DNA from: Bacillota bacterium
GTDB taxonomy: Bacteria; Bacillota; Clostridia; Christensenellales; UBA1242
Direction of reading: 5' to 3'
Assembly: GCA_009780065.1 (NCBI GenBank)
Contig: WRAS01000005.1
Location: forward strand, 7,013-71,012
DNA: 64,000 nt
The position numbers and the translations under genes were made by a program. The notes under the pieces are model-generated. The model worked only from the letters and a program-made list of their open reading frames with translations. It ran no database searches and was not told the DNA's origin. Shown piece after piece: positions 3,052 to 56,750 of the stretch (within the stretch, counting starts at the first letter, position 1; each line of letters begins with the position of its first letter).

Positions 3052-4207
3052 CTTAATCTCAGCCCTTGTATTTCCAGCAGGCAGTGGAATTCGCGGCATA
3101 GTATTTTCCAGTATTTCATGGATTTATTCATGGACAGGCAGTTACGGTCTGGCAATCATTATGTTTACATTGTTTTTGCGTGTTGCGTTTATCCCGCTTG
3201 ATTTTGCAACAAAGTACTTTACCAAACGAAACAGTATTCGTATGGCAGAATTAAAGCCAGAGGAAGAACGTTTAAAAAACACCTATGCCGATGACCCGAT
3301 GGGTCTGCAACGTGCACGCCAAGAGATGTATAAAAAACACGGTGCAGGTATGGGCGGATTTTGCCTGTTTACCATTTTGAACCTTGTCGTTATGATGGTT
3401 ATATTCATTAACGTGTTCCAAGGTTTAAACCAAATCAGTCACTTTAACGTGAATAATCAATATACTCATCTGCAAGGTGTTTACCAAGAGTGGAGACAAC
3501 AAGGTTATACACGAGAACAATTGGCGGAAAACGAATACTTCCATGCCGAAATAAACCAGGTATTTAACGATACCACACCAAGTTTCCTGTGGGTTTCCAA
3601 TATGTGGCGTCCAGATGCACCATGGACACGCCAAGCACTTAACTGGAGCCAATTCCAAAGTGCAATAAATAATGTCCACAGTGATTATCGCGTAACCGCA
3701 TTATCTACAAGTCAGAATCTGGAAAGCGAGTATAATTTTATATTTTCCAACATTGATGCATCCGCTCGTCGTTGGAATGGTTTCTTGTTATTTGTTTTAT
3801 TGGCGGGTGCTACAACGTATTTCTCGGTCGTACTTAACGCAAAAATGATGAAGGCACGAGACAAAGAGAAGAAGGAAAACGAGGAAAAAGAAGCTGGTTA
3901 CAGCATTCGCGATGCATTGGTCGAAACACCAGCCGGAACAAAAGCACCAATCTCGCCAATGGACCCCGCAATGATGGGGAAAATGATGAAATTCATGATG
4001 CCCGTTATTATGATAATTTTTACACTTACCAACACCGCTGCACTTGCGATTTATATTACGATGAGCAGTTTATTCGCAACCCTAATCGGTCTTGGTCTGA
4101 ATAAATTGGTGGAATTAATAATTAAAAAGCAAGAATCAAAGAAAAAAGAAAAACAGCCGGACATGACAATAATAAATCCACATGCAAAATACTTTAAAAA
4201 TAAGTAA
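3044..4207 (+). CDS. yidC: YidC/Oxa1-family membrane protein insertase
   Basis: 387 aa, multi-pass, in conserved rnpA-yidD-yidC context, with a basic C-terminal tail. SD AAAGGAG upstream. Confidence 0.85.
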   Translation: MFNLISALVFPAGSGIRGIVFSSISWIYSWTGSYGLAIIMFTLFLRVAFIPLDFATKYFTKRNSIRMAELKPEEERLKNTYADDPMGLQRARQEMYKKHGAGMGGFCLFTILNLVVMMVIFINVFQGLNQISHFNVNNQYTHLQGVYQEWRQQGYTREQLAENEYFHAEINQVFNDTTPSFLWVSNMWRPDAPWTRQALNWSQFQSAINNVHSDYRVTALSTSQNLESEYNFIFSNIDASARRWNGFLLFVLLAGATTYFSVVLNAKMMKARDKEKKENEEKEAGYSIRDALVETPAGTKAPISPMDPAMMGKMMKFMMPVIMIIFTLTNTAALAIYITMSSLFATLIGLGLNKLVELIIKKQESKKKEKQPDMTIINPHAKYFKNK

Positions 4208-4266
4208 TGTACAAAATTATATGCATTGTGATAAACTTGCACATAATTTCTAAAGAAGGAGTTGAC

Positions 4267-5079
4267 ATGGCTAAATCAATCGAAACCAGCGCAAAAACAA
4301 TAGACGAAGCGGTAAATGACGGACTGGAACAACTTGGTGCTTCGTACGAAGATGTGGACGTGGAAATCATTTCCGGTGGCGGGATGTTCAAAAAAGCAAA
4401 GGTTAAATTAACACTGAAAGAAGGTGTTAAAATTGAACCCGAGGTTAAAACAGAAGTTAAACAAGAAACACCAACCCCTGCGCCTGTTAAAATCGAAGAA
4501 ACAAAAATTGAAACAAAATCTGAGGTGGCTAGAACAGAGCAAACACAAAAGCCAATTCCGCAAAAACCTGTGCCGCAAAAAACGCCTGCAACGCCTATAT
4601 CTGCGGGTTCATCCGCCAAGTTGGATGCGTGTGTGGATTTTGTTACGAAAATTCTTGCTGGGTTGGAAAATGATGCAACGATATCCTGCGAAACCAATGA
4701 CCGAGGATACATTATCAACATCAGCGGTGAGGATGTTGGCAGACTTATTGGGAAGGGTGGTGAAGCACTTAATGCCTTGCAAACACTTGTCAGTTCAATT
4801 GCAATCAATAATGCAAAAGGCGATAATAAACGTGTTTACGTAAATATCGAAAACTATCACGAGAAAAGAACAGACACATTAAAAGCACTTGCACAAAAGA
4901 AAGCGGAATACGTACTTAGAACCGGTAAGCGCATAACATTGGAACCTATGACAGCGCGCGAACGTGCAATAATACACACCGCTGTCCAAGAAATTACCGG
5001 CGTAAAAAGTTACAGTTTTGGCGAGGGTGTTAACCGACGTTTATGTATCGCAGTGGATAACGGGGAATCCAAAAAATAA
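4267..5079 (+). CDS. jag: Jag/KhpB RNA-binding protein (Jag_N, KH and R3H domains)
   Basis: The start is chosen at the ATG after GAAGGAG. MAKSIETSAKTIDEAVNDGLEQLG is Jag_N-like, GRLIGKGGEALNALQTLV is a KH motif, and the C-terminal R3H-like region is ERAIIHTAVQE. It follows yidC as in many Bacillota. Confidence 0.85.
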   Translation: MAKSIETSAKTIDEAVNDGLEQLGASYEDVDVEIISGGGMFKKAKVKLTLKEGVKIEPEVKTEVKQETPTPAPVKIEETKIETKSEVARTEQTQKPIPQKPVPQKTPATPISAGSSAKLDACVDFVTKILAGLENDATISCETNDRGYIINISGEDVGRLIGKGGEALNALQTLVSSIAINNAKGDNKRVYVNIENYHEKRTDTLKALAQKKAEYVLRTGKRITLEPMTARERAIIHTAVQEITGVKSYSFGEGVNRRLCIAVDNGESKK

Positions 5080-5556
5080 ATGTTTAACGTAATATTAGTT
5101 TTTATGATTCTGCTGACCGTATGGTATACCAGTGCCATCGCAACCACCATAGTTTCGCGGGTAGACCCATATTACAAAGGCAAACTAGTCCGTGGAAAAG
5201 AGGGTTGTTTTTGCGATCATTGCGGCGATGTGATTCAAACCGTGCATACATTTCCTGTAACCGGATATTTAATGCTTCGGGGGAAAACAAAATGTTGTGA
5301 AAAACCTATCCCGCGAATTTATCTTTGGGTTGAGATTTCCATGTTTTTGTACCAGTTAGTTGTGCTGTATTTTCTGGCTCATCGTCCATTGATTTGTGCA
5401 GCGGTCATGTTTGGTGGGATTGTTGTTGGACTTTTTATTTTTTGTGTTCACAAATATGGGATTCGTTTTAATTACAAACATTTTATAATCAGTCAATTTT
5501 TCATGATTGTCGCATTTTTATGTATTAGTATGTTTTTATTAGCATTTCAAATTTAA
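5080..5556 (+). CDS. Membrane protein with a prepilin-peptidase N-terminal (DiS_P_DiS-like, CxxC...CC) domain; no obvious A24 catalytic domain
   Basis: CDHCGDVIQTVHTFPVTGYLMLRGKTKCCEKPIPRIYLWVEI resembles the N-terminal zinc-binding domain of PilD/ComC-type peptidases. It is followed only by hydrophobic helices. Confidence 0.5.
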   Translation: MFNVILVFMILLTVWYTSAIATTIVSRVDPYYKGKLVRGKEGCFCDHCGDVIQTVHTFPVTGYLMLRGKTKCCEKPIPRIYLWVEISMFLYQLVVLYFLAHRPLICAAVMFGGIVVGLFIFCVHKYGIRFNYKHFIISQFFMIVAFLCISMFLLAFQI

Positions 5557-5614
5557 AAGTCTTATTAAAATTTACATTTGTCAATAATTGAACATTACTG
5601 TATACTTCCCCAGT

Positions 5615-6646
5615 ATGATAAATATGAGAACAAAACAAACACAAATCATCTGCACCATAGGTCCGGCAAGTAATAAGGAAGACACAATAGCACAAATGGC
5701 ACGCGTAGGCATGAACATTGCCCGTGTAAATTGCAGCCACGGCGGAGCAGAAGGTAATCGACATGTTTTTGAAGTATTGAAAAAGACTCGTGAAAAACAT
5801 GGACTTGATTTTAAAATTATGCTGGATACAAAGGGTCCAGACGTACGTATCGGAACATTCAAAGAGGGTGGTGTTGATTTAAAGTCCGGTGATATCTTTA
5901 CGCTTACAACCGACGAATGTGAAGGCACCAAAAACCGTGTGTGGATTAATTGTCCGCCGCTCCCAAAAAAGGTAGCAGTTGGCCAGCCAATTTTACTAAG
6001 CGACGGTATGATTCATGTTGTAGTCACAGAAGTAAAGGGCAACGACGTAATAACCAAAATCGAAATAGGTGGACGATTAACCGACCGCAAAACCGCGTTC
6101 GCACCAAACTGTGACCTTGGTTTGCCATTCATGGCAGATTATGATAAACATGATTTGATTCTTGGAAAAAAATATGGTGCGGAACTGGTGGCAGCAAGTT
6201 TCGTAGGCAATGGTGCAGATTTGGACGAAATGAATGAATTCATGCGAAAGAATAAATGCGAAATGCCAATTATATCTAAAATCGAATCCAGTGACGGAAT
6301 TAAAAACCTGGATGAAATTTTGCAGCGTACATGGGGAATTATGGTTGCGCGCGGGGATCTTGGCGTGGAATATCCTATTGAACAGATTCCGACATTGCAG
6401 AAACTGATTGTGACTAAAACACGTGAGGTAGGAAAATTCTGTGTAGTTGCAACAGAAATGATGGAGAGTATGGTTTCCAGACCCCGCCCAACACGTGCCG
6501 AAGTTACCGATGTAGCCAACGCAGTCTGGCAGGACGCATCCGCAGTCATGTTGTCCGCAGAATCCGCAACCGGAAATTTCCCCGTGGAGACGGTAACCTA
6601 TATGTCCAAAATCGTAATGGAAGCAGAGAAAAGCAAAACAAATTAA
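5615..6646 (+). CDS. pyk: Pyruvate kinase, short form (A and B domains only)
   Basis: MRTKQTQIICTIGPAS...MNIARVNCSHGG...MVARGDLGVE are pyruvate kinase motifs. The ORF ends where the C-terminal domain normally begins. The start is ambiguous between 5615 (MINMRTK) and 5624. Promoter TTGTCA-17-TATACT lies at 5578-5606. Confidence 0.85.
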   Translation: MINMRTKQTQIICTIGPASNKEDTIAQMARVGMNIARVNCSHGGAEGNRHVFEVLKKTREKHGLDFKIMLDTKGPDVRIGTFKEGGVDLKSGDIFTLTTDECEGTKNRVWINCPPLPKKVAVGQPILLSDGMIHVVVTEVKGNDVITKIEIGGRLTDRKTAFAPNCDLGLPFMADYDKHDLILGKKYGAELVAASFVGNGADLDEMNEFMRKNKCEMPIISKIESSDGIKNLDEILQRTWGIMVARGDLGVEYPIEQIPTLQKLIVTKTREVGKFCVVATEMMESMVSRPRPTRAEVTDVANAVWQDASAVMLSAESATGNFPVETVTYMSKIVMEAEKSKTN

Positions 6647-16392: not shown

Positions 16393-17787
16393 ATGAAATT
16401 ATTTAATACTCTTACACGAAAGAAAGAGGTTTTTACACCACTGGATGGTAGCACAGCCCGCATTTATACGTGCGGCCCTACCGTTTATGGTACACCCTCC
16501 ATTGGCAATATGCGTGCCTATATATTCACAGATATTTTAAAAAAGAGTCTGGAATATATCGGTTTTGATATAAATGACATTATCAATACAACCGACGTTG
16601 GACATCTGCAAAGTGATGCAGACGAGGGCGAGGATAAAATAGAAGTTGCCGCACGCAAAGCCAATTTAGACCCGATGCAAATTGCCAAACAATACACGGA
16701 CGAATTTCTTCGTGATTGTGCAAAGTTGAATATCCGCCATCCAAAGATTTTAGCACCTGCATCAAAATATGTACCACAAATGATTGAGCATGTATCCGGG
16801 TTAGAAAAAAAAGGCTTTACATACCAAATCAGTGACGGTGTTTATTTTGATGCTTCGCTGTTTCCAAAGTACTATGAACTAAGCGGTAAAAAGGAACAAA
16901 AAGGGGACAAAGCCGGTGCCCGTATAAAAATGGGTGAAAAGAAAAATCAAAATGACTTTGCATTGTGGAAAATCACAAAACCAACCGCATTACAGAAATG
17001 GGATTCACCATGGGGTGTTGGTTGCCCAGGTTGGCACATCGAATGTTCCGCAATCGCACGCCATCACTTTGGAGATACCTTTGATATTCACACAGGTGGG
17101 ATAGACCACATCCCAATCCACCACACAAACGAAATTGCGCAAACCCAGGCACTGACAAATAAACCGGTTGCACAATTTTGGATACATAACGAATTTGTCA
17201 AGGTTGATGGCAAAAAAATGTCCAAAAGTCTTGGCAACGTTTATACAATTCCCCAATTGGAAGAAATGGGTTTCAATCCTTTGGCATATCGATATTTTGC
17301 ATTGGGTACTCATTACCGTACAATTATTAACTTCACCTTCGAAGCATTAAAAGGTGCACAGACTGGCTATGATAATCTTGTACGCGAACTTGTGCGTCAC
17401 AAAACTTCGCTTATCAACGCGTTAATTGCAATTGATTTTGATGAATATCGTAAACGTTTTCATGATGCAATTTCGGACGATTTGAATACGCCACGTGCCC
17501 TTGCACTGGTGTGGGAGTTGGTGAAAAACGGACCAAACAAAGAAATCTATGATTTAATTATTGAATTTGATAGTGTACTGTCATTATCATTAGAAGAAGC
17601 GATTAACAAAGAAATCGCCAAATCAAATGTTAAAATCCCGTCACTGGTAACCAAAATTGCAAATGCACGCATGGATGCAAAAAAAGCAAAAGATTTCAAA
17701 ACAGCGGACAAGTTACGAGAGGAAATCAAAACACTTGGGTACGAGATTATAGATACCAAAGACGGATACGAAATCACAAAGATTTGA
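16393..17787 (+). CDS. cysS: Cysteine--tRNA ligase
   Basis: 464 aa. YTCGPTVYGTPSIGNMR is the class I HIGH region and KMSKSLGN is the KMSKS motif. The CPGWHIEC zinc motif is present. Confidence 0.95.
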   Translation: MKLFNTLTRKKEVFTPLDGSTARIYTCGPTVYGTPSIGNMRAYIFTDILKKSLEYIGFDINDIINTTDVGHLQSDADEGEDKIEVAARKANLDPMQIAKQYTDEFLRDCAKLNIRHPKILAPASKYVPQMIEHVSGLEKKGFTYQISDGVYFDASLFPKYYELSGKKEQKGDKAGARIKMGEKKNQNDFALWKITKPTALQKWDSPWGVGCPGWHIECSAIARHHFGDTFDIHTGGIDHIPIHHTNEIAQTQALTNKPVAQFWIHNEFVKVDGKKMSKSLGNVYTIPQLEEMGFNPLAYRYFALGTHYRTIINFTFEALKGAQTGYDNLVRELVRHKTSLINALIAIDFDEYRKRFHDAISDDLNTPRALALVWELVKNGPNKEIYDLIIEFDSVLSLSLEEAINKEIAKSNVKIPSLVTKIANARMDAKKAKDFKTADKLREEIKTLGYEIIDTKDGYEITKI

Positions 17788-26004: not shown

Positions 26005-26448
26005 ATGAAGAAAAAAAGCGAACTTATGCTTAAATTTGACGCTCTTGAAGAAAAAAGAGATAGTCAGATTTCAAGTTATAGACCTGACAGGTTTATGTTG
26101 GAGAAAAGAAAAGCAATTCAAAAGGAAATCAACGACCTTGTTAATCAAATGGCACCAGTTGACGAGTCTTTTGCCGAGTACATTGATGACAGAAGAATTC
26201 CGCGTGGAGCACTTTATCCAAGCGGAATTAAATGCGTTGATCCGTCGCAAAATCGAGGTTCAACGTATTACGTGTCAGAAATAACTGGTTGCAGCAGAGA
26301 GGTTCAATATGAATCTGATCTTGGTGGGGTGGGATACGGACCTGAATTGGAATATGATAAACAAATTAAATTTGGTCAATGTAGCAAGTTTATGGGTTGG
26401 GAAGGTTTTTCTATCCCAGAAGCCACAAGTGTTAAAGAAAGAGATTAA
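26005..26448 (+). CDS. Hypothetical protein
   Basis: 147-aa ORF. Promoter TTGACT-18-TATAAT (25970-25999) ends 5 nt before the ATG, with no SD. Confidence 0.55.
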   Translation: MKKKSELMLKFDALEEKRDSQISSYRPDRFMLEKRKAIQKEINDLVNQMAPVDESFAEYIDDRRIPRGALYPSGIKCVDPSQNRGSTYYVSEITGCSREVQYESDLGGVGYGPELEYDKQIKFGQCSKFMGWEGFSIPEATSVKERD

Positions 26449-26461
26449 AATTATAATTTAA

Positions 26462-26490
26462 TTGACTAATTCCAACAAATAACATATAAT
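26462..26490 (+). promoter_or_regulatory. Consensus promoter TTGACT-17-TATAAT of the glyQS leader
   Basis: TTGACT at 26462-26467 and TATAAT at 26485-26490. Confidence 0.7.
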
Positions 26491-26521
26491 ATCTCATAAC
26501 ATCTAAGGAGTTTGTGTTTGC

Positions 26522-26569
26522 ATGAAAATAAATTTCAAGAAGGTTAACGGGGGAGGCGGGATAAGGTAG
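26522..26569 (+). CDS. Candidate leader peptide MKINFKKVNGGGGIR (four consecutive Gly codons) upstream of glyQS
   Basis: AAGGAG at 26505-26510, 11 nt before the ATG. Codons 10-13 are GGG GGA GGC GGG. TAG stop. It lies between the promoter and the terminator at 26639-26678. Confidence 0.45.
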   Translation: MKINFKKVNGGGGIR

Positions 26570-26638
26570 TCCGCACATTTAGAAGTTGCGCGGGCAAGAA
26601 TTATCTTTGAATCGCCGCAACAAGATATTCGAAAACGA

Positions 26639-26678
26639 AACATCTGGCGGAATCACAAAACCCGATAGATGTTTTTTT
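26639..26678 (+). terminator. Intrinsic terminator (attenuator) about 20 nt upstream of the glyQS start
   Basis: AACATCTGGCGG (26639-26650) pairs with CCGATAGATGTT (26662-26673) with one mismatch and one G-U. The hairpin is followed by seven T. Confidence 0.7.
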
Positions 26679-26698
26679 AAAAAATAAGGAGAAATTAA

Positions 26699-28105
26699 AT
26701 GAGCGAAAAAATAAAAAATGACCAATCCAAGTTAGACAAAATCGTGGCACTGTCAAAAAACCGTGGATTCATATTTCCGGGTTCCGAAATCTACGGCGGT
26801 CTTGCCAATACGTGGGATTACGGTCCGCTTGGTGTTGAATTAAAGAATTCAATCAAACGCGAATGGTGGAAATTTTTTGTGCAAGAGGACAAAAATGCCG
26901 TAGGTATAGATGGTGGTATTTTGATGAATCCAAACGTATGGGTGGCAAGTGGCCACGTTGGCGGTTTTTCGGATCCATTAAAGGATTGTAAATCATGTAA
27001 AACACGTCACCGTGCAGATAATCTGATTGCGAACAGTCCAATAGGCAAAAAGCAAAGTATAGATACAGATGCAATGTCAACGACACAGATGGATGAATAC
27101 GTTGAAGCAAATAAAATTAATTGCCCACATTGTGGTAAAAGTGACTGGACACAGATCCGTCAATTTAACCTAATGTTCAAGACCAATCGCGGTGTAACAG
27201 ATGACAGTTCCAGTGTGGTTTATCTGCGCCCAGAAACCGCGCAAGCCCAATTTGTTAACTTTCAAAACCTTCAACGCGTTTCACGCTTAAAGTTACCTTT
27301 TGGTGTAGGACAAATAGGAAAAGCATTCAGAAACGAGATTACCCCAGGTAACTTTACATTCAGAACAGTAGAGTTCGAACAGATGGAGTATCAGTACTTT
27401 ACACACGCGAGCACAAGCATGGATGATTACGAAATGTTTAAATCCCGTGCGATGGAATTTTATATCAAGCGCCTTGGCATTGAAAAAAAGCAATTAAAGT
27501 TCAAAGATCATGGTACCGCATTATCTCACTATGCAAAGGCTGCGGTAGACGCACAATATAACTTTCCATTTGGTTTTGGTGAAATAGGCGGAACACATCA
27601 CCGCGGTACATTTGACCTTGGAAACCACCAAACGCATAGTGGTAAAAACATGGAATACGTAGATCCAGTGACAAACGAAAAATACATCCCTACCGTAATT
27701 GAATCCAGTCACGGATGTGACCGCCTTGTTCTGGCTGTGCTTTGTAATGCGTATCATGAAGAAACTTTAGAAGGGGATGACGTACGTGTTGTGCTGAAAT
27801 TAAAACCTTGTTTAGCACCTTATAAGGTTGCGGTCTTGCCGCTGCAAAAAAAGGATTTGGGCGAAAAATCTGACGAAATCTTTGCATTATTGGCAAAAAA
27901 CTTTATGACAACATACGACGAAACAGCAAGTATCGGAAAGCGTTACCGCCGCCAAGATGAAATTGGCACACCGTTTTGTGTAACCGTGGACTTTGAAACT
28001 TTGGAAGATGATTGCGTAACAATTCGGTACCGAGACACCATGAAGCAAGAGCGTGTGCCAATAAAGAAATTAGTAAATCACATAACAAAAAAGTTAAGTA
28101 AATAA
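26699..28105 (+). CDS. glyQS: Glycine--tRNA ligase (homodimeric alpha2 type)
   Basis: 468 aa, RGFIFPGSEIYGGLANTWDYGPLGVELKNSIKREWW...FRNEITP... SD AAGGAG. Confidence 0.95.
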   Translation: MSEKIKNDQSKLDKIVALSKNRGFIFPGSEIYGGLANTWDYGPLGVELKNSIKREWWKFFVQEDKNAVGIDGGILMNPNVWVASGHVGGFSDPLKDCKSCKTRHRADNLIANSPIGKKQSIDTDAMSTTQMDEYVEANKINCPHCGKSDWTQIRQFNLMFKTNRGVTDDSSSVVYLRPETAQAQFVNFQNLQRVSRLKLPFGVGQIGKAFRNEITPGNFTFRTVEFEQMEYQYFTHASTSMDDYEMFKSRAMEFYIKRLGIEKKQLKFKDHGTALSHYAKAAVDAQYNFPFGFGEIGGTHHRGTFDLGNHQTHSGKNMEYVDPVTNEKYIPTVIESSHGCDRLVLAVLCNAYHEETLEGDDVRVVLKLKPCLAPYKVAVLPLQKKDLGEKSDEIFALLAKNFMTTYDETASIGKRYRRQDEIGTPFCVTVDFETLEDDCVTIRYRDTMKQERVPIKKLVNHITKKLSK

Positions 28106-29677: not shown

Positions 29678-29730
29678 GTGAACACTAGTGTAAGATTTAC
29701 TTGTGCGACTTCATCGCACGGGTTATACTA
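29678..29730 (+). repeat. Copy E1 of a conserved ~53-nt promoter/operator-like element (ACACTAGTGT dyad; TTGTGC-17-TATACT; internal GTGCGA-N5-TCGCAC dyad)
   Basis: GTGAACACTAGTGTAAGATTTACTTGTGCGACTTCATCGCACGGGTTATACTA. By manual alignment, 46 of 53 aligned positions are identical to the reverse complement of 32145-32197. The -10-like TATACT ends 6 nt before the ATG at 29736. Confidence 0.75.
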
Positions 29731-29735
29731 AATCC

Positions 29736-30848
29736 ATGAACAATCAACAACAAACAAACCAAGACCAAGAAACAGTAATCAGCGAAGCAGAAGCCGCAAA
29801 TATCCAACAAAATAAGTGTGGTGGATGCGGTGCAAACATGAATTTTGATGTGGCTTCTGGCGGACTTAAATGCGGCCATTGTGGCAATACAACAGAATTT
29901 AATGACGATGAAAAAGTTCAGCGCAGGCAAATAACCGCAGATATTTTAAAATCTCACGAGCAATGGACAGACGGTCGTGTTGCGCAATGTACTAACTGTG
30001 GTGCCAAAGAGGTTCTTTCTAAGACAGATATCGCAACACAATGCGTATTCTGTGGCAGCGCAAAGATTCAAGATATCAACGAAATGCCAGGTATCAAACC
30101 GGATTCGGTAATACCATTTCAAATAACCGAACAATCGTCTATAGACCGATTTCGAAAATGGGCTAAGTCCAAATTCTTTGCACCCAAAGGATTTAAAAGA
30201 AGTGATGTGCGAAAGAATATAAATAAACTGTATACACCTTGCTGGTCTTTTTCCACAAAAACAGAAAACATTTACAATGGAACACTGGGGCGTACCGTGA
30301 CACGAACCGTAGGTCACGGACAGAATGCAAGGACGGTAACTACCACACATTGGTTCCGTGTAAGTGGTATGATTTTTCAAGATTACATGGATGTATTTTA
30401 TCAAAGTGGAAATCGTATAACATCCAAAAACTTTAATCGTTTAAAACCATTTGATTTACGCCAAGTAAAGGTATACCGCCAAGAATATCTAAGCGGTATA
30501 GTTGCCGAGCATTATTCTAGAACCCTTGAGGAGTGTTTTAACGAATTTTCACGCTTTATAAAGCAAGATATTCGTACACGCGTTATTCGCAAGCACCGTG
30601 CAGACAGCGTCTCTTTTTTGGACATTCAAACACGTTACAATGACAAGAGATTTAACTATGTTCTTCTTCCTCTTTACATAACAAACTACCAGTACAAAGA
30701 CAAAAACTTTAACGTTTATATTAACGGGGCAACAGGAAAGGTGACCGGTAGATATCCCGTAAGTGGAAGACGTGTATTCGGTCTTGTATTTGGTATTATC
30801 CTTACAATAGGTGCCGCCGCGGCTCTTGCATACTTTTTAACAAGATAA
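29736..30848 (+). CDS. Zinc-ribbon membrane protein (two CxxC...CxxC pairs, C-terminal TM helix), conserved hypothetical
   Basis: KCGGCGANM...KCGHCGN and QCTNCGAK...CVFCGS. YVLLPLYITNYQYKDKNFNVYINGATGKVTG is followed by the hydrophobic tail VFGLVFGIILTIGAAAALAYFL. The start is taken at the ATG (MNNQQQ), not the GTG of the track. Confidence 0.65.
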   Translation: MNNQQQTNQDQETVISEAEAANIQQNKCGGCGANMNFDVASGGLKCGHCGNTTEFNDDEKVQRRQITADILKSHEQWTDGRVAQCTNCGAKEVLSKTDIATQCVFCGSAKIQDINEMPGIKPDSVIPFQITEQSSIDRFRKWAKSKFFAPKGFKRSDVRKNINKLYTPCWSFSTKTENIYNGTLGRTVTRTVGHGQNARTVTTTHWFRVSGMIFQDYMDVFYQSGNRITSKNFNRLKPFDLRQVKVYRQEYLSGIVAEHYSRTLEECFNEFSRFIKQDIRTRVIRKHRADSVSFLDIQTRYNDKRFNYVLLPLYITNYQYKDKNFNVYINGATGKVTGRYPVSGRRVFGLVFGIILTIGAAAALAYFLTR

Positions 30849-32121: not shown

Positions 32122-32144
32122 TTTAGTCTCCTATATTATTTTTT

Positions 32145-32197
32145 AATATACCCCGTGTGACGAAGTCGCACAAGTAAAATCTTTCATTAGTGTTCAC
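32145..32197 (-). repeat. Copy E2 of the ~53-nt element, inverted relative to E1, immediately upstream of ybaB
   Basis: The minus strand reads GTGAACACTAATGAAAGATTTTACTTGTGCGACTTCGTCACACGGGGTATATT (TTGTGC-17-TATATT). It overlaps the TGA stop of the 32194..32493 ORF. Confidence 0.75.
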
Positions 32198-56473: not shown

Positions 56474-56577
56474 TTAAAAATATCTCCCTTGCTATACTAG
56501 TTTTAGTATATTGTAAAATCCAAAATTTGGCAAGGAAATTGACTTGACATTTTTGAATTATGGTATATAATATAGTT

Positions 56578-56750
56578 ATAAAGTCTCCGCCTAAGACCGC
56601 AAGCAGATGGTAACATCACAAGTCTTGCCGAGGATGGAATCAATAACATATTTTTTATGTAACAATGATTTCGCACCTCTGCTCTTAGGGTAAAACCAAA
56701 AGACGCGGAGGTTTTTATATAGAGTTTGTTTTTATTCAAAACAAACTCTT
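56578..56750 (+). promoter_or_regulatory. Structured 5' leader of rplJ-rplL (candidate ribosomal protein L10 leader/attenuator)
   Basis: Promoter TTGACA (56544-56549)-16-TATAAT (56566-56571). Long-range helices are CTCCGC (56585-56590)/GCGGAG (56705-56710) and CCTAAGA (56590-56596)/TCTTAGG (56683-56689), followed by a T-run. A perfect 12-bp hairpin lies at 56722-56750. Position and architecture fit the L10 leader known in Bacillota. Not verified by a covariance model. Confidence 0.5.

Follow-up and report, generated by a model that had tools for sequence, protein, structure and literature searches.

How a cell of the Bacillota adjusts glycyl-tRNA synthetase to the supply of charged tRNA-Gly would ordinarily be answered by a T-box, as the aminoacyl-tRNA synthetase (aaRS) genes of this phylum are textbook T-box riboswitch territory. 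The glyQS gene analysed here raises the question of what could stand in that position instead: its leader carries a short open reading frame (sORF) with four consecutive glycine codons and, behind it, a predicted intrinsic terminator. The reading we favour, with modest confidence, is plausible on sequence and folding models: a ribosome-mediated, glycine-sensing leader-peptide transcription attenuator of glyQS, of unusual layout, in place of a T-box. All folding described below is single-sequence prediction.

In the window (the whole 64-kb stretch of DNA that was analysed), glyQS is preceded by a gap of 250 nt, which separates it from a 147-aa ORF ending at 26448. The gene (26699–28105, forward strand, as are all features below) encodes a dimeric-type glycine–tRNA ligase of 468 aa with the Pfam domains HGTP_anticodon and tRNA-synt_2b, and homologues of its product are named glycine–tRNA ligase by NCBI and JGI. 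At the upstream side of the gap lies a sigma-70-type promoter (26462–26490), composed of TTGACT (26462–26467), a 17-nt spacer and TATAAT (26485–26490), which matches 11/12 positions of the consensus, as a preliminary description made from the sequence alone had reported. Transcription probably starts at ~26497. The transcript would then begin with UAACAUCUAAGGAGUUUGUGUUUGC (26497–26521), a predicted antiterminator strand that also holds the Shine–Dalgarno (SD) sequence AAGGAG (26505–26510) of the sORF, and this strand can pair with sORF codons 1–9 in a predicted hairpin, H1 (26497–26546), the candidate anti-antiterminator. The sORF MKINFKKVNGGGGIR (26522–26569), a direct reading of the sequence, comprises 15 codons from ATG at 26522 and the stop codon TAG at 26567–26569. 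A central spacer domain (26550–26635), predicted to form a long irregular hairpin and a small UUCG-AAAA-CGAA hairpin, leads to the predicted terminator (26637–26678), with a stem of 26637–26650 and 26662–26675, an 11-nt loop AAUCACAAAAC and a T7 run (26672–26678). The glyQS SD sequence, AAGGAG (26686–26691), follows at 7 nt from the ATG, a spacing typical of the genome. Between the consensus promoter, the SD-led sORF, the terminator and the SD of glyQS there is no space for a further promoter, so that any expression of glyQS has to come from read-through. The leader stretch is 100% identical across three independent assemblies (ENA, JGI and Logan), in an identity that spans 3.7–9.4 kb, so that it is not an assembly artefact. 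The organism, an uncultured gut bacterium, occurs in the datasets JGI 3300010369, ENA ERZ27257297 and SRR10512952, which are probably metagenomes of termite guts. No second copy of the leader was found within the 64-kb window, for which reason a repeated or mobile element was rejected.

A T-box is excluded. The Rfam T-box model (RF00230) at the gathering threshold gave no match in the whole window, and a permissive search (E ≤ 10) of positions 26440–26720 (281 nt) with the Rfam families, T-box included, returned no T-box, the best matches having E > 1 and belonging to unrelated families. The gathering threshold misses the visibly T-box-like short leaders of two more distant relatives (L007 and L009), and in the permissive mode these served as a positive control, their truncated T-boxes reaching 54.5 and 45.7 bits (E of 7e-10 and 1e-7). 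The negative result is meaningful because the same settings detect them. Neither a T-box core (GGUGG-ACCGCG-like) nor a UGGA bulge is visible on reading the leader sequence, and the covariance model finds no stem I, K-turn or specifier loop; the only GGC lies within the G-run and not in a specifier-type loop. The leader likewise gave no match to the glycine riboswitch (RF00504) or to other Rfam cis-regulators. The preliminary description had failed to see a T-box, and its observation stands, with Rfam negative even at E ≤ 10 against control scores of 45.7–54.5 bits. Its premise that a T-box is to be expected here is weak for this lineage, since neither the glyQS genes of the nearest relatives nor the window's cysS gene has one.

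The sORF reads ATG AAA ATA AAT TTC AAG AAG GTT AAC GGG GGA GGC GGG ATA AGG TAG. The preliminary description had pointed to an AAGGAG motif with a 15-codon ORF, and to GGG GGA GGC GGG at codons 10–13; both are found as described, the glycine run occupying 26549–26560. This run is the sole (GGN)4 and the sole 12-mer with at least ten G on both strands of the 64-kb window. GGG, the rarest glycine codon here (14%), occurs twice in it, and GGT, the commonest (39%), is unused. For the sORF, what we regard as the fairest null model takes the G-run as given for RNA-structural reasons. An SD sequence and an ATG in frame with and open to such a run are then found in 0.65% of genomic contexts, the frame that reads GGN four times has a probability of ~9%, and a stop codon follows within four codons in 17%, which gives a combined chance of ~1e-4 (0.65% × 9% × 17%) conditional on the G-run. 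An accidental sORF is unlikely by this estimate. Two features count against translation of the sORF: the SD-to-ATG spacer of 11 nt, compared with a genome mode of 5–7 nt, and a TTG at 26518, placed at the ideal SD spacing of 7 nt, which opens another frame of nine codons that stops before the G-run.

The terminator arms AACATCTGGCGG (26639–26650) and CCGATAGATGTT (26662–26673), which the preliminary description had put forward as the stem, are present and pair at 10 of 12 positions, with a single mismatch pair inside the stem and a loop of 11 nt. Its predicted free energy is −12.6 to −13.2 kcal/mol, and an inverted-repeat search recovered the hairpin as well (repeat I3); a simple terminator scanner did not call it because the loop exceeds 8 nt. 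With the transcript's 5′ strand made unavailable, the terminator forms with a predicted probability of 0.87–0.95. The seven U said to follow the stem exist as a seven-T run (26672–26678), but this run begins inside the stem, and five U follow the 12-bp stem. The distance of about 20 nt stated between the terminator and the glyQS ribosome-binding site needs correction: the T-run ends 8 nt before the SD sequence, and ~20 nt is its distance to the start codon. The loop itself is complementary at 9 of its 11 nucleotides to 26511–26519 (inverted repeat I7), and this complementarity to the 5′ strand explains its odd length.

The 5′ end of the transcript thus has two predicted partners. In the minimum free energy (MFE) fold of the full-length leader, which is better than shuffled sequences (z of −3.2), the terminator is absent, and 26497–26521 pairs with the upper part of the terminator 5′ arm, the loop and the 3′ arm (26647–26675). 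The duplex of 26497–26521 with 26647–26676 has a predicted energy of −19.6 kcal/mol, equalled by 0.06% of 12,795 genomic 25-mers (p ~6e-4) and by 0 of 3000 shuffles, and the inverted-repeat search independently finds its two parts, I1 (26498–26513 with 26658–26673) and I7 (26511–26519 with 26651–26659). When the SD region was masked as by an initiating ribosome, the terminator returned with a probability of 0.7–0.8. The other partner of the 5′ strand is the beginning of the sORF. H1 (−8.3 kcal/mol, z of −1.8) is only marginally better than shuffles, and in the folds computed without a ribosome it dominates all prefixes of the transcript up to ~26668.

The two resulting folds are predicted to be nearly isoenergetic. 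An OFF fold, made up of H1, the central domain and the terminator, has −45.4 kcal/mol, and an ON fold, in which the 5′ strand pairs with the terminator, has −48.2 kcal/mol; findpath puts the barrier between them at ~13 kcal/mol. With such a barrier between near-isoenergetic folds, the fold that is set as the terminator loop emerges should persist for seconds. Wherever the 5′ strand is free, the antiterminator prevails once folding has reached full equilibrium, and termination would therefore need a kinetic trap, which the models predict. The central domain (26550–26635) has a predicted energy of −23.9 kcal/mol (z of −2.4; 0 of 200 shuffles as stable) and is the same in both states. The layout predicted by these models is an inverted one, in which the 5′ end including the SD sequence acts as antiterminator, the first codons of the sORF as anti-antiterminator and the terminator loop as toehold. 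A further, translational layer through the inverted repeat I4, which would pair 26572–26581 with the glyQS start codon, was rejected; the pairing is absent from the ensemble and lies in the 1.5% tail of genomic 21-mers.

The effect of ribosome position on this choice was computed from ensembles at RNA lengths 26664–26668, with the ribosome represented as a footprint mask. Without a ribosome, H1 had 12 bp and the antiterminator 4 bp. With the A site on any of the four glycine codons, H1 was reduced to 0–3 bp and the antiterminator had 7–15 bp, and with the A site on the stop codon the values were 15 bp and 1.5 bp, respectively. In silico, a ribosome on the glycine codons thus opens H1 and a ribosome at the stop codon does not. 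This pattern was robust to footprint edges from −12/−15 to +12/+15 and to transcription starts from 26495 to 26497; the effect was weaker with a start at 26499 or with the 5′ edge of the footprint at −18. A ribosome stalled at Gly1–2 would have its trailing edge ~13–16 nt past the ATG, which should block the loading of a second ribosome, one that in its turn would mask the antiterminator strand.

From these elements a working model can be assembled in which the attenuator would signal to the promoter-proximal terminator of glyQS how much charged tRNA-Gly is available. In the OFF state, the 5′ end (26497–26521) would be locked in H1 against the first sORF codons, the terminator (26637–26675) would form and transcription would stop at the T-run. 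In the ON state, the free 5′ strand would capture the large terminator loop as a toehold while the loop is emerging, and would zip from there into the terminator 3′ arm, so that the terminator is blocked and RNA polymerase enters glyQS. A freely translating ribosome would run from the ATG at 26522 to the TAG at 26567 and clear the 3′ arm of H1, which would re-form and lead to termination. With Gly-tRNA-Gly scarce, the ribosome would stall with its A site on one of the four glycine codons; its footprint (~26534–26571) would keep the H1 3′ arm covered, and its trailing edge would leave too little space for a second ribosome at the SD sequence. Because the stalled ribosome would both cover the H1 3′ arm and block reloading of the SD, the 5′ strand would be left naked and would antiterminate, and more GlyRS would be made, a response that makes physiological sense. 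The analysis shows the parts in the sequence, how rare they are, and the competing helices with the energies predicted for them; we infer here the transcription start, the translation of the sORF, the stalling, the order of the folding kinetics and the regulatory outcome.

Relatives of the locus were sought in genome contigs, metagenome contigs and a database of 5.8 billion proteins. Among distinct GlyRS proteins the closest has 76% identity, and the nearest relatives are uncultured Bacillota metagenome-assembled genomes (MAGs), followed by Christensenellales-like Clostridia. In the nearest relatives (60–76% identity), glyQS either follows the preceding gene at a distance of a few to ~100 nt or comes immediately after a −10 box, with no T-box core or long leader upstream and mostly with no leader. 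With the leader as query, blastn and nhmmer gave no homologue in the 400-nt regions that precede glyQS at 160 loci (≤76% identity), the best match being 14 nt long, and a homology-free scan of 156 glyQS loci found no run of at least three glycine codons in a short upstream ORF; the relatives' upstream sequences were also inspected by eye. In the orthologues the leader is missing as a whole, and not the sORF alone, so that a ground for refutation named in the preliminary description, absence of the sORF from orthologous leaders, does not apply cleanly. The closest locus by bit score (P0002/L161) is nevertheless 67% identical at the DNA level, and the sole other copies of the leader are 100% identical, in three loci (L162–L164) that are identical to the window. 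By sequence, the element is a singleton, present in one species only. T-boxes appear to be absent from the lineage. The leader of glyQS is unusual even within its own genome: the window's cysS gene (16393–17787) has neither a T-box nor a leader and starts 7 nt after a TATAAA, its apparent 262-nt upstream gap being filled by a 74-aa ORF. This second aaRS gene had been considered as a source of corroboration and was rejected as such, as the leader is absent there and a −10-like box immediately precedes the gene start.

The same results bear on explanations other than a glycine-sensing attenuator of this inverted kind. The preliminary description had proposed the classical four-segment scheme, with GCGGG at 26556–26560 as segment 1, TCCGC at 26570–26574 as segment 2, GCGGA at 26647–26651 as segment 3 and the terminator 3′ arm as segment 4. 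These 5-mers exist and are complementary as it stated, and a 1:2 hairpin by itself has a predicted energy of −5.9 kcal/mol. The 1:2 / 2:3 / 3:4 logic built on them, however, does not survive folding. A forced 2:3 pairing is 5.9–7.9 kcal/mol worse than the terminator state, TCCGC prefers another GCGGG at 26589–26593, and complementarity over five bases is expected by chance. With the 5′ segment occluded, the terminator probability was 0.87–0.95 for every ribosome position, whether at Gly1–4, Ile, Arg or the stop codon. We regard this scheme as very unlikely. A longer relay of six segments (S1:S2 / S2:S3 / S3:S4 / S4:T5 / T5:T3) was rejected on the same ground, as masking of the 5′ strand lets the terminator form wherever the ribosome sits. 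What stands of the proposal is its general idea of a leader-peptide attenuator with glycine codons, which the sORF statistics and the layout support; the helices it named do not. A T-box that has degenerated strongly but continues to sense uncharged tRNA-Gly is more improbable still, to the point of being negligible. It would suit the position before glyQS in a Bacillota genome, the GGC triplet in the leader and the truncated T-boxes of the more distant relatives L007 and L009, but the search at E ≤ 10 was empty over 281 nt under settings that give truncated T-boxes 45–55 bits, the leader has neither a GGUGG-ACCGCG-like core nor a UGGA bulge, and the nearest relatives likewise have no T-box.

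An RNA-only or factor-dependent switch, which we consider unlikely, would treat the long-range pairing of the 5′ end with the terminator as a P1-like closing helix, with the central domain binding a ligand, a tRNA or a protein such as GlyRS, and with the sORF incidental or modulating. The stability of the whole leader and of the central domain relative to shuffles (z of −3.2 and −2.4) would agree with this, as would the partial base pairing of the G-run within the central hairpin, and riboswitch expression platforms are typically bistable in the way predicted here, where the barrier is 13 kcal/mol. However, the leader has no Rfam family match even at E ≤ 10, no anticodon-like or UGGN motif was seen in the hairpin loops inspected, and homologues from which an aptamer could be defined were not found; moreover, such a switch leaves unexplained that the window's only (GGN)4 stands in frame behind a perfect SD and ATG, with a stop two codons on. 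The promoter-to-terminator unit of ~184 nt could also be an independent gene for a small peptide or small RNA (sRNA), with glyQS expressed by constitutive leaky read-through and without glycine sensing. An equilibrium fold that disfavours the terminator would imply substantial constitutive read-through, and a lineage-specific element resembles many sRNAs and small ORFs in this respect. Against it, an essential gene that lacks its own promoter and lies directly behind a terminator is an attenuation signature, for a codon run to match by coincidence the synthetase encoded behind it, the chance would be of the order of 1e-4, and the window holds no other copy of the element; we regard this explanation as decidedly improbable.

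The favoured reading, a glycine-sensing attenuator, can be compared with known systems. By sequence and predicted folding, the element fits a leader-peptide attenuator in its short ORF with a ribosome-binding site (the 11-nt spacer being atypical), in a codon run cognate to the regulated gene (GGG GGA GGC GGG before glyQS), in an intrinsic terminator, predicted from sequence, between leader ORF and gene, and in a predicted helix of 26497–26521 that would act as an antiterminator exclusive of the terminator. It departs from that class in lacking the canonical 1-2-3-4 order, in which a post-stop segment 2 has the 5′ arm of the terminator as its partner, and in lacking conservation in related genomes (160 glyQS loci). 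The pheM, trpL and hisL leaders have the same ORF size and codon placement as this one, which has 15 codons, the run at codons 10–13, two more codons and a stop. With the pheM leader of Escherichia coli pheST and the trpL/hisL class it shares a short SD-led ORF (14–16 codons) with the cognate run near its end, a terminator just upstream of the gene and mutually exclusive terminator and antiterminator folds, and with pheST it further shares an aminoacyl-tRNA synthetase as the regulated gene. In contrast to these systems, the amino acid here is glycine, the host belongs to the Bacillota and sequence homology is absent; moreover, the strand predicted to antiterminate is found ahead of the ORF, whose SD sequence it contains, rather than after the stop codon, and the terminator loop would serve as toehold.

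Classical attenuators have been listed before pheST in gamma-proteobacteria and, as candidates, before trpS and leuS in Streptomyces, in a study that stated that no such control of aaRS genes was then known in Firmicutes (Seliverstov et al. 2005, PMC1262725). The Streptomyces trpS and leuS candidates share with the present element a predicted leader peptide with cognate codons and a predicted antiterminator/terminator pair before an aaRS gene, outside the Proteobacteria; they differ in belonging to Actinobacteria and in being conserved between at least two species (PMC1262725). In Firmicutes, His-leader attenuators have been predicted in three lineages without T-box or HisR control (Ashniev et al. 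2022, PMC9413887). These have in common with the glyQS leader that leader-peptide attenuation is predicted in Bacillota lineages which use no T-box for the function concerned, with a run of 3–5 cognate codons, but they control his biosynthesis operons and are conserved in species groups (PMC9413887), whereas here an aaRS gene is involved and the element is a singleton. The glyQS T-box (RF00230) acts on the same gene and has the same output, a terminator/antiterminator decision on tRNA-Gly charging. In contrast, the present leader has no specifier loop, no core and no model match, and sensing is proposed to occur via the ribosome rather than by direct tRNA binding. Neither a glycine-codon leader peptide nor a glyQS attenuator was found in full-text searches of the literature.

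Tentatively, a lineage that has lost its T-boxes and has largely leaderless mRNAs may have invented a glycyl-tRNA-sensing attenuator de novo, with an inverted layout. If the proposed reading is true, glycine-specific attenuation would be seen here for the first time, as would attenuation of the classical type at an aaRS gene of the Bacillota; ribosome-mediated sensing could replace direct tRNA sensing after loss of the T-box, and attenuator devices could emerge rapidly within one lineage. The predicted layout falls outside the 1-2-3-4 scheme assumed by attenuator search tools, and similar elements may be missed systematically. The element is short (~200 nt) and self-contained.

In the glyQS leader of the window, a direct repeat, TAACATCTAAGGAG (26497–26510) and TAAAAAATAAGGAG (26678–26691), spans both Shine–Dalgarno (SD) regions, that of the 15-codon leader ORF and that of glyQS. 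The motif AACATCT is also present twice, at positions 26498 and 26639, and the predicted antiterminator 5' strand and the 5' arm of the terminator are therefore partial copies of one another, possibly as the result of a local duplication that gave rise to the proposed terminator–antiterminator switch. [quoted passage not shown]

In the nearest relatives, a TATAAT-like box lies 6–9 nt ahead of the glyQS start and an SD is absent (related glyQS loci L001 and L083, approximately 2950–2980; L002, approximately 2950–2977; L084, approximately 1400–1426; L089, approximately 320–349; L092, approximately 2470–2501; and L095, approximately 235–260). This spacing, together with the lack of an SD, suggests that leaderless glyQS mRNAs are frequent within this clade of uncultured gut Bacillota. 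In the window, the cysS gene (16393–17787) has practically no 5' UTR, with a TATAAA box 7 nt ahead of the ATG, and its mRNA thus looks leaderless. [quoted passage not shown]

Some classical Bacillota-type leaders are kept in this genome, as a ribosomal protein L10 leader (RF00557) was found at 56572–56726, with a score of 46.5 bits, narrowly over the gathering score of 44. Among more distant relatives, L007 (2823–2943, about 120 nt, 54.5 bits) and L009 (2746–2945, 45.7 bits) possess glyQS T-boxes in which stem I is severely truncated. Both scores are far under the Rfam gathering score of 93, and these T-boxes are therefore overlooked by standard annotation.

Two inverted copies of a repeat roughly 56 nt long (29678–29732 and 32142–32197, 87.5% identity) flank a 2.4-kb segment of the window comprising a 381-aa ORF (29703–30848, no Pfam match), a small HTH_3 gene and yabP.

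In locus L161 (GCA_029782595.1, JARCCX010002411.1), the gene call for GlyRS (4001–6109) is 702 aa long, and two separate parts of it, 4046–4668 and 5338–5394, both match window glyQS positions 27331–27387, a doubling that may represent an internal duplication or a mis-assembly.
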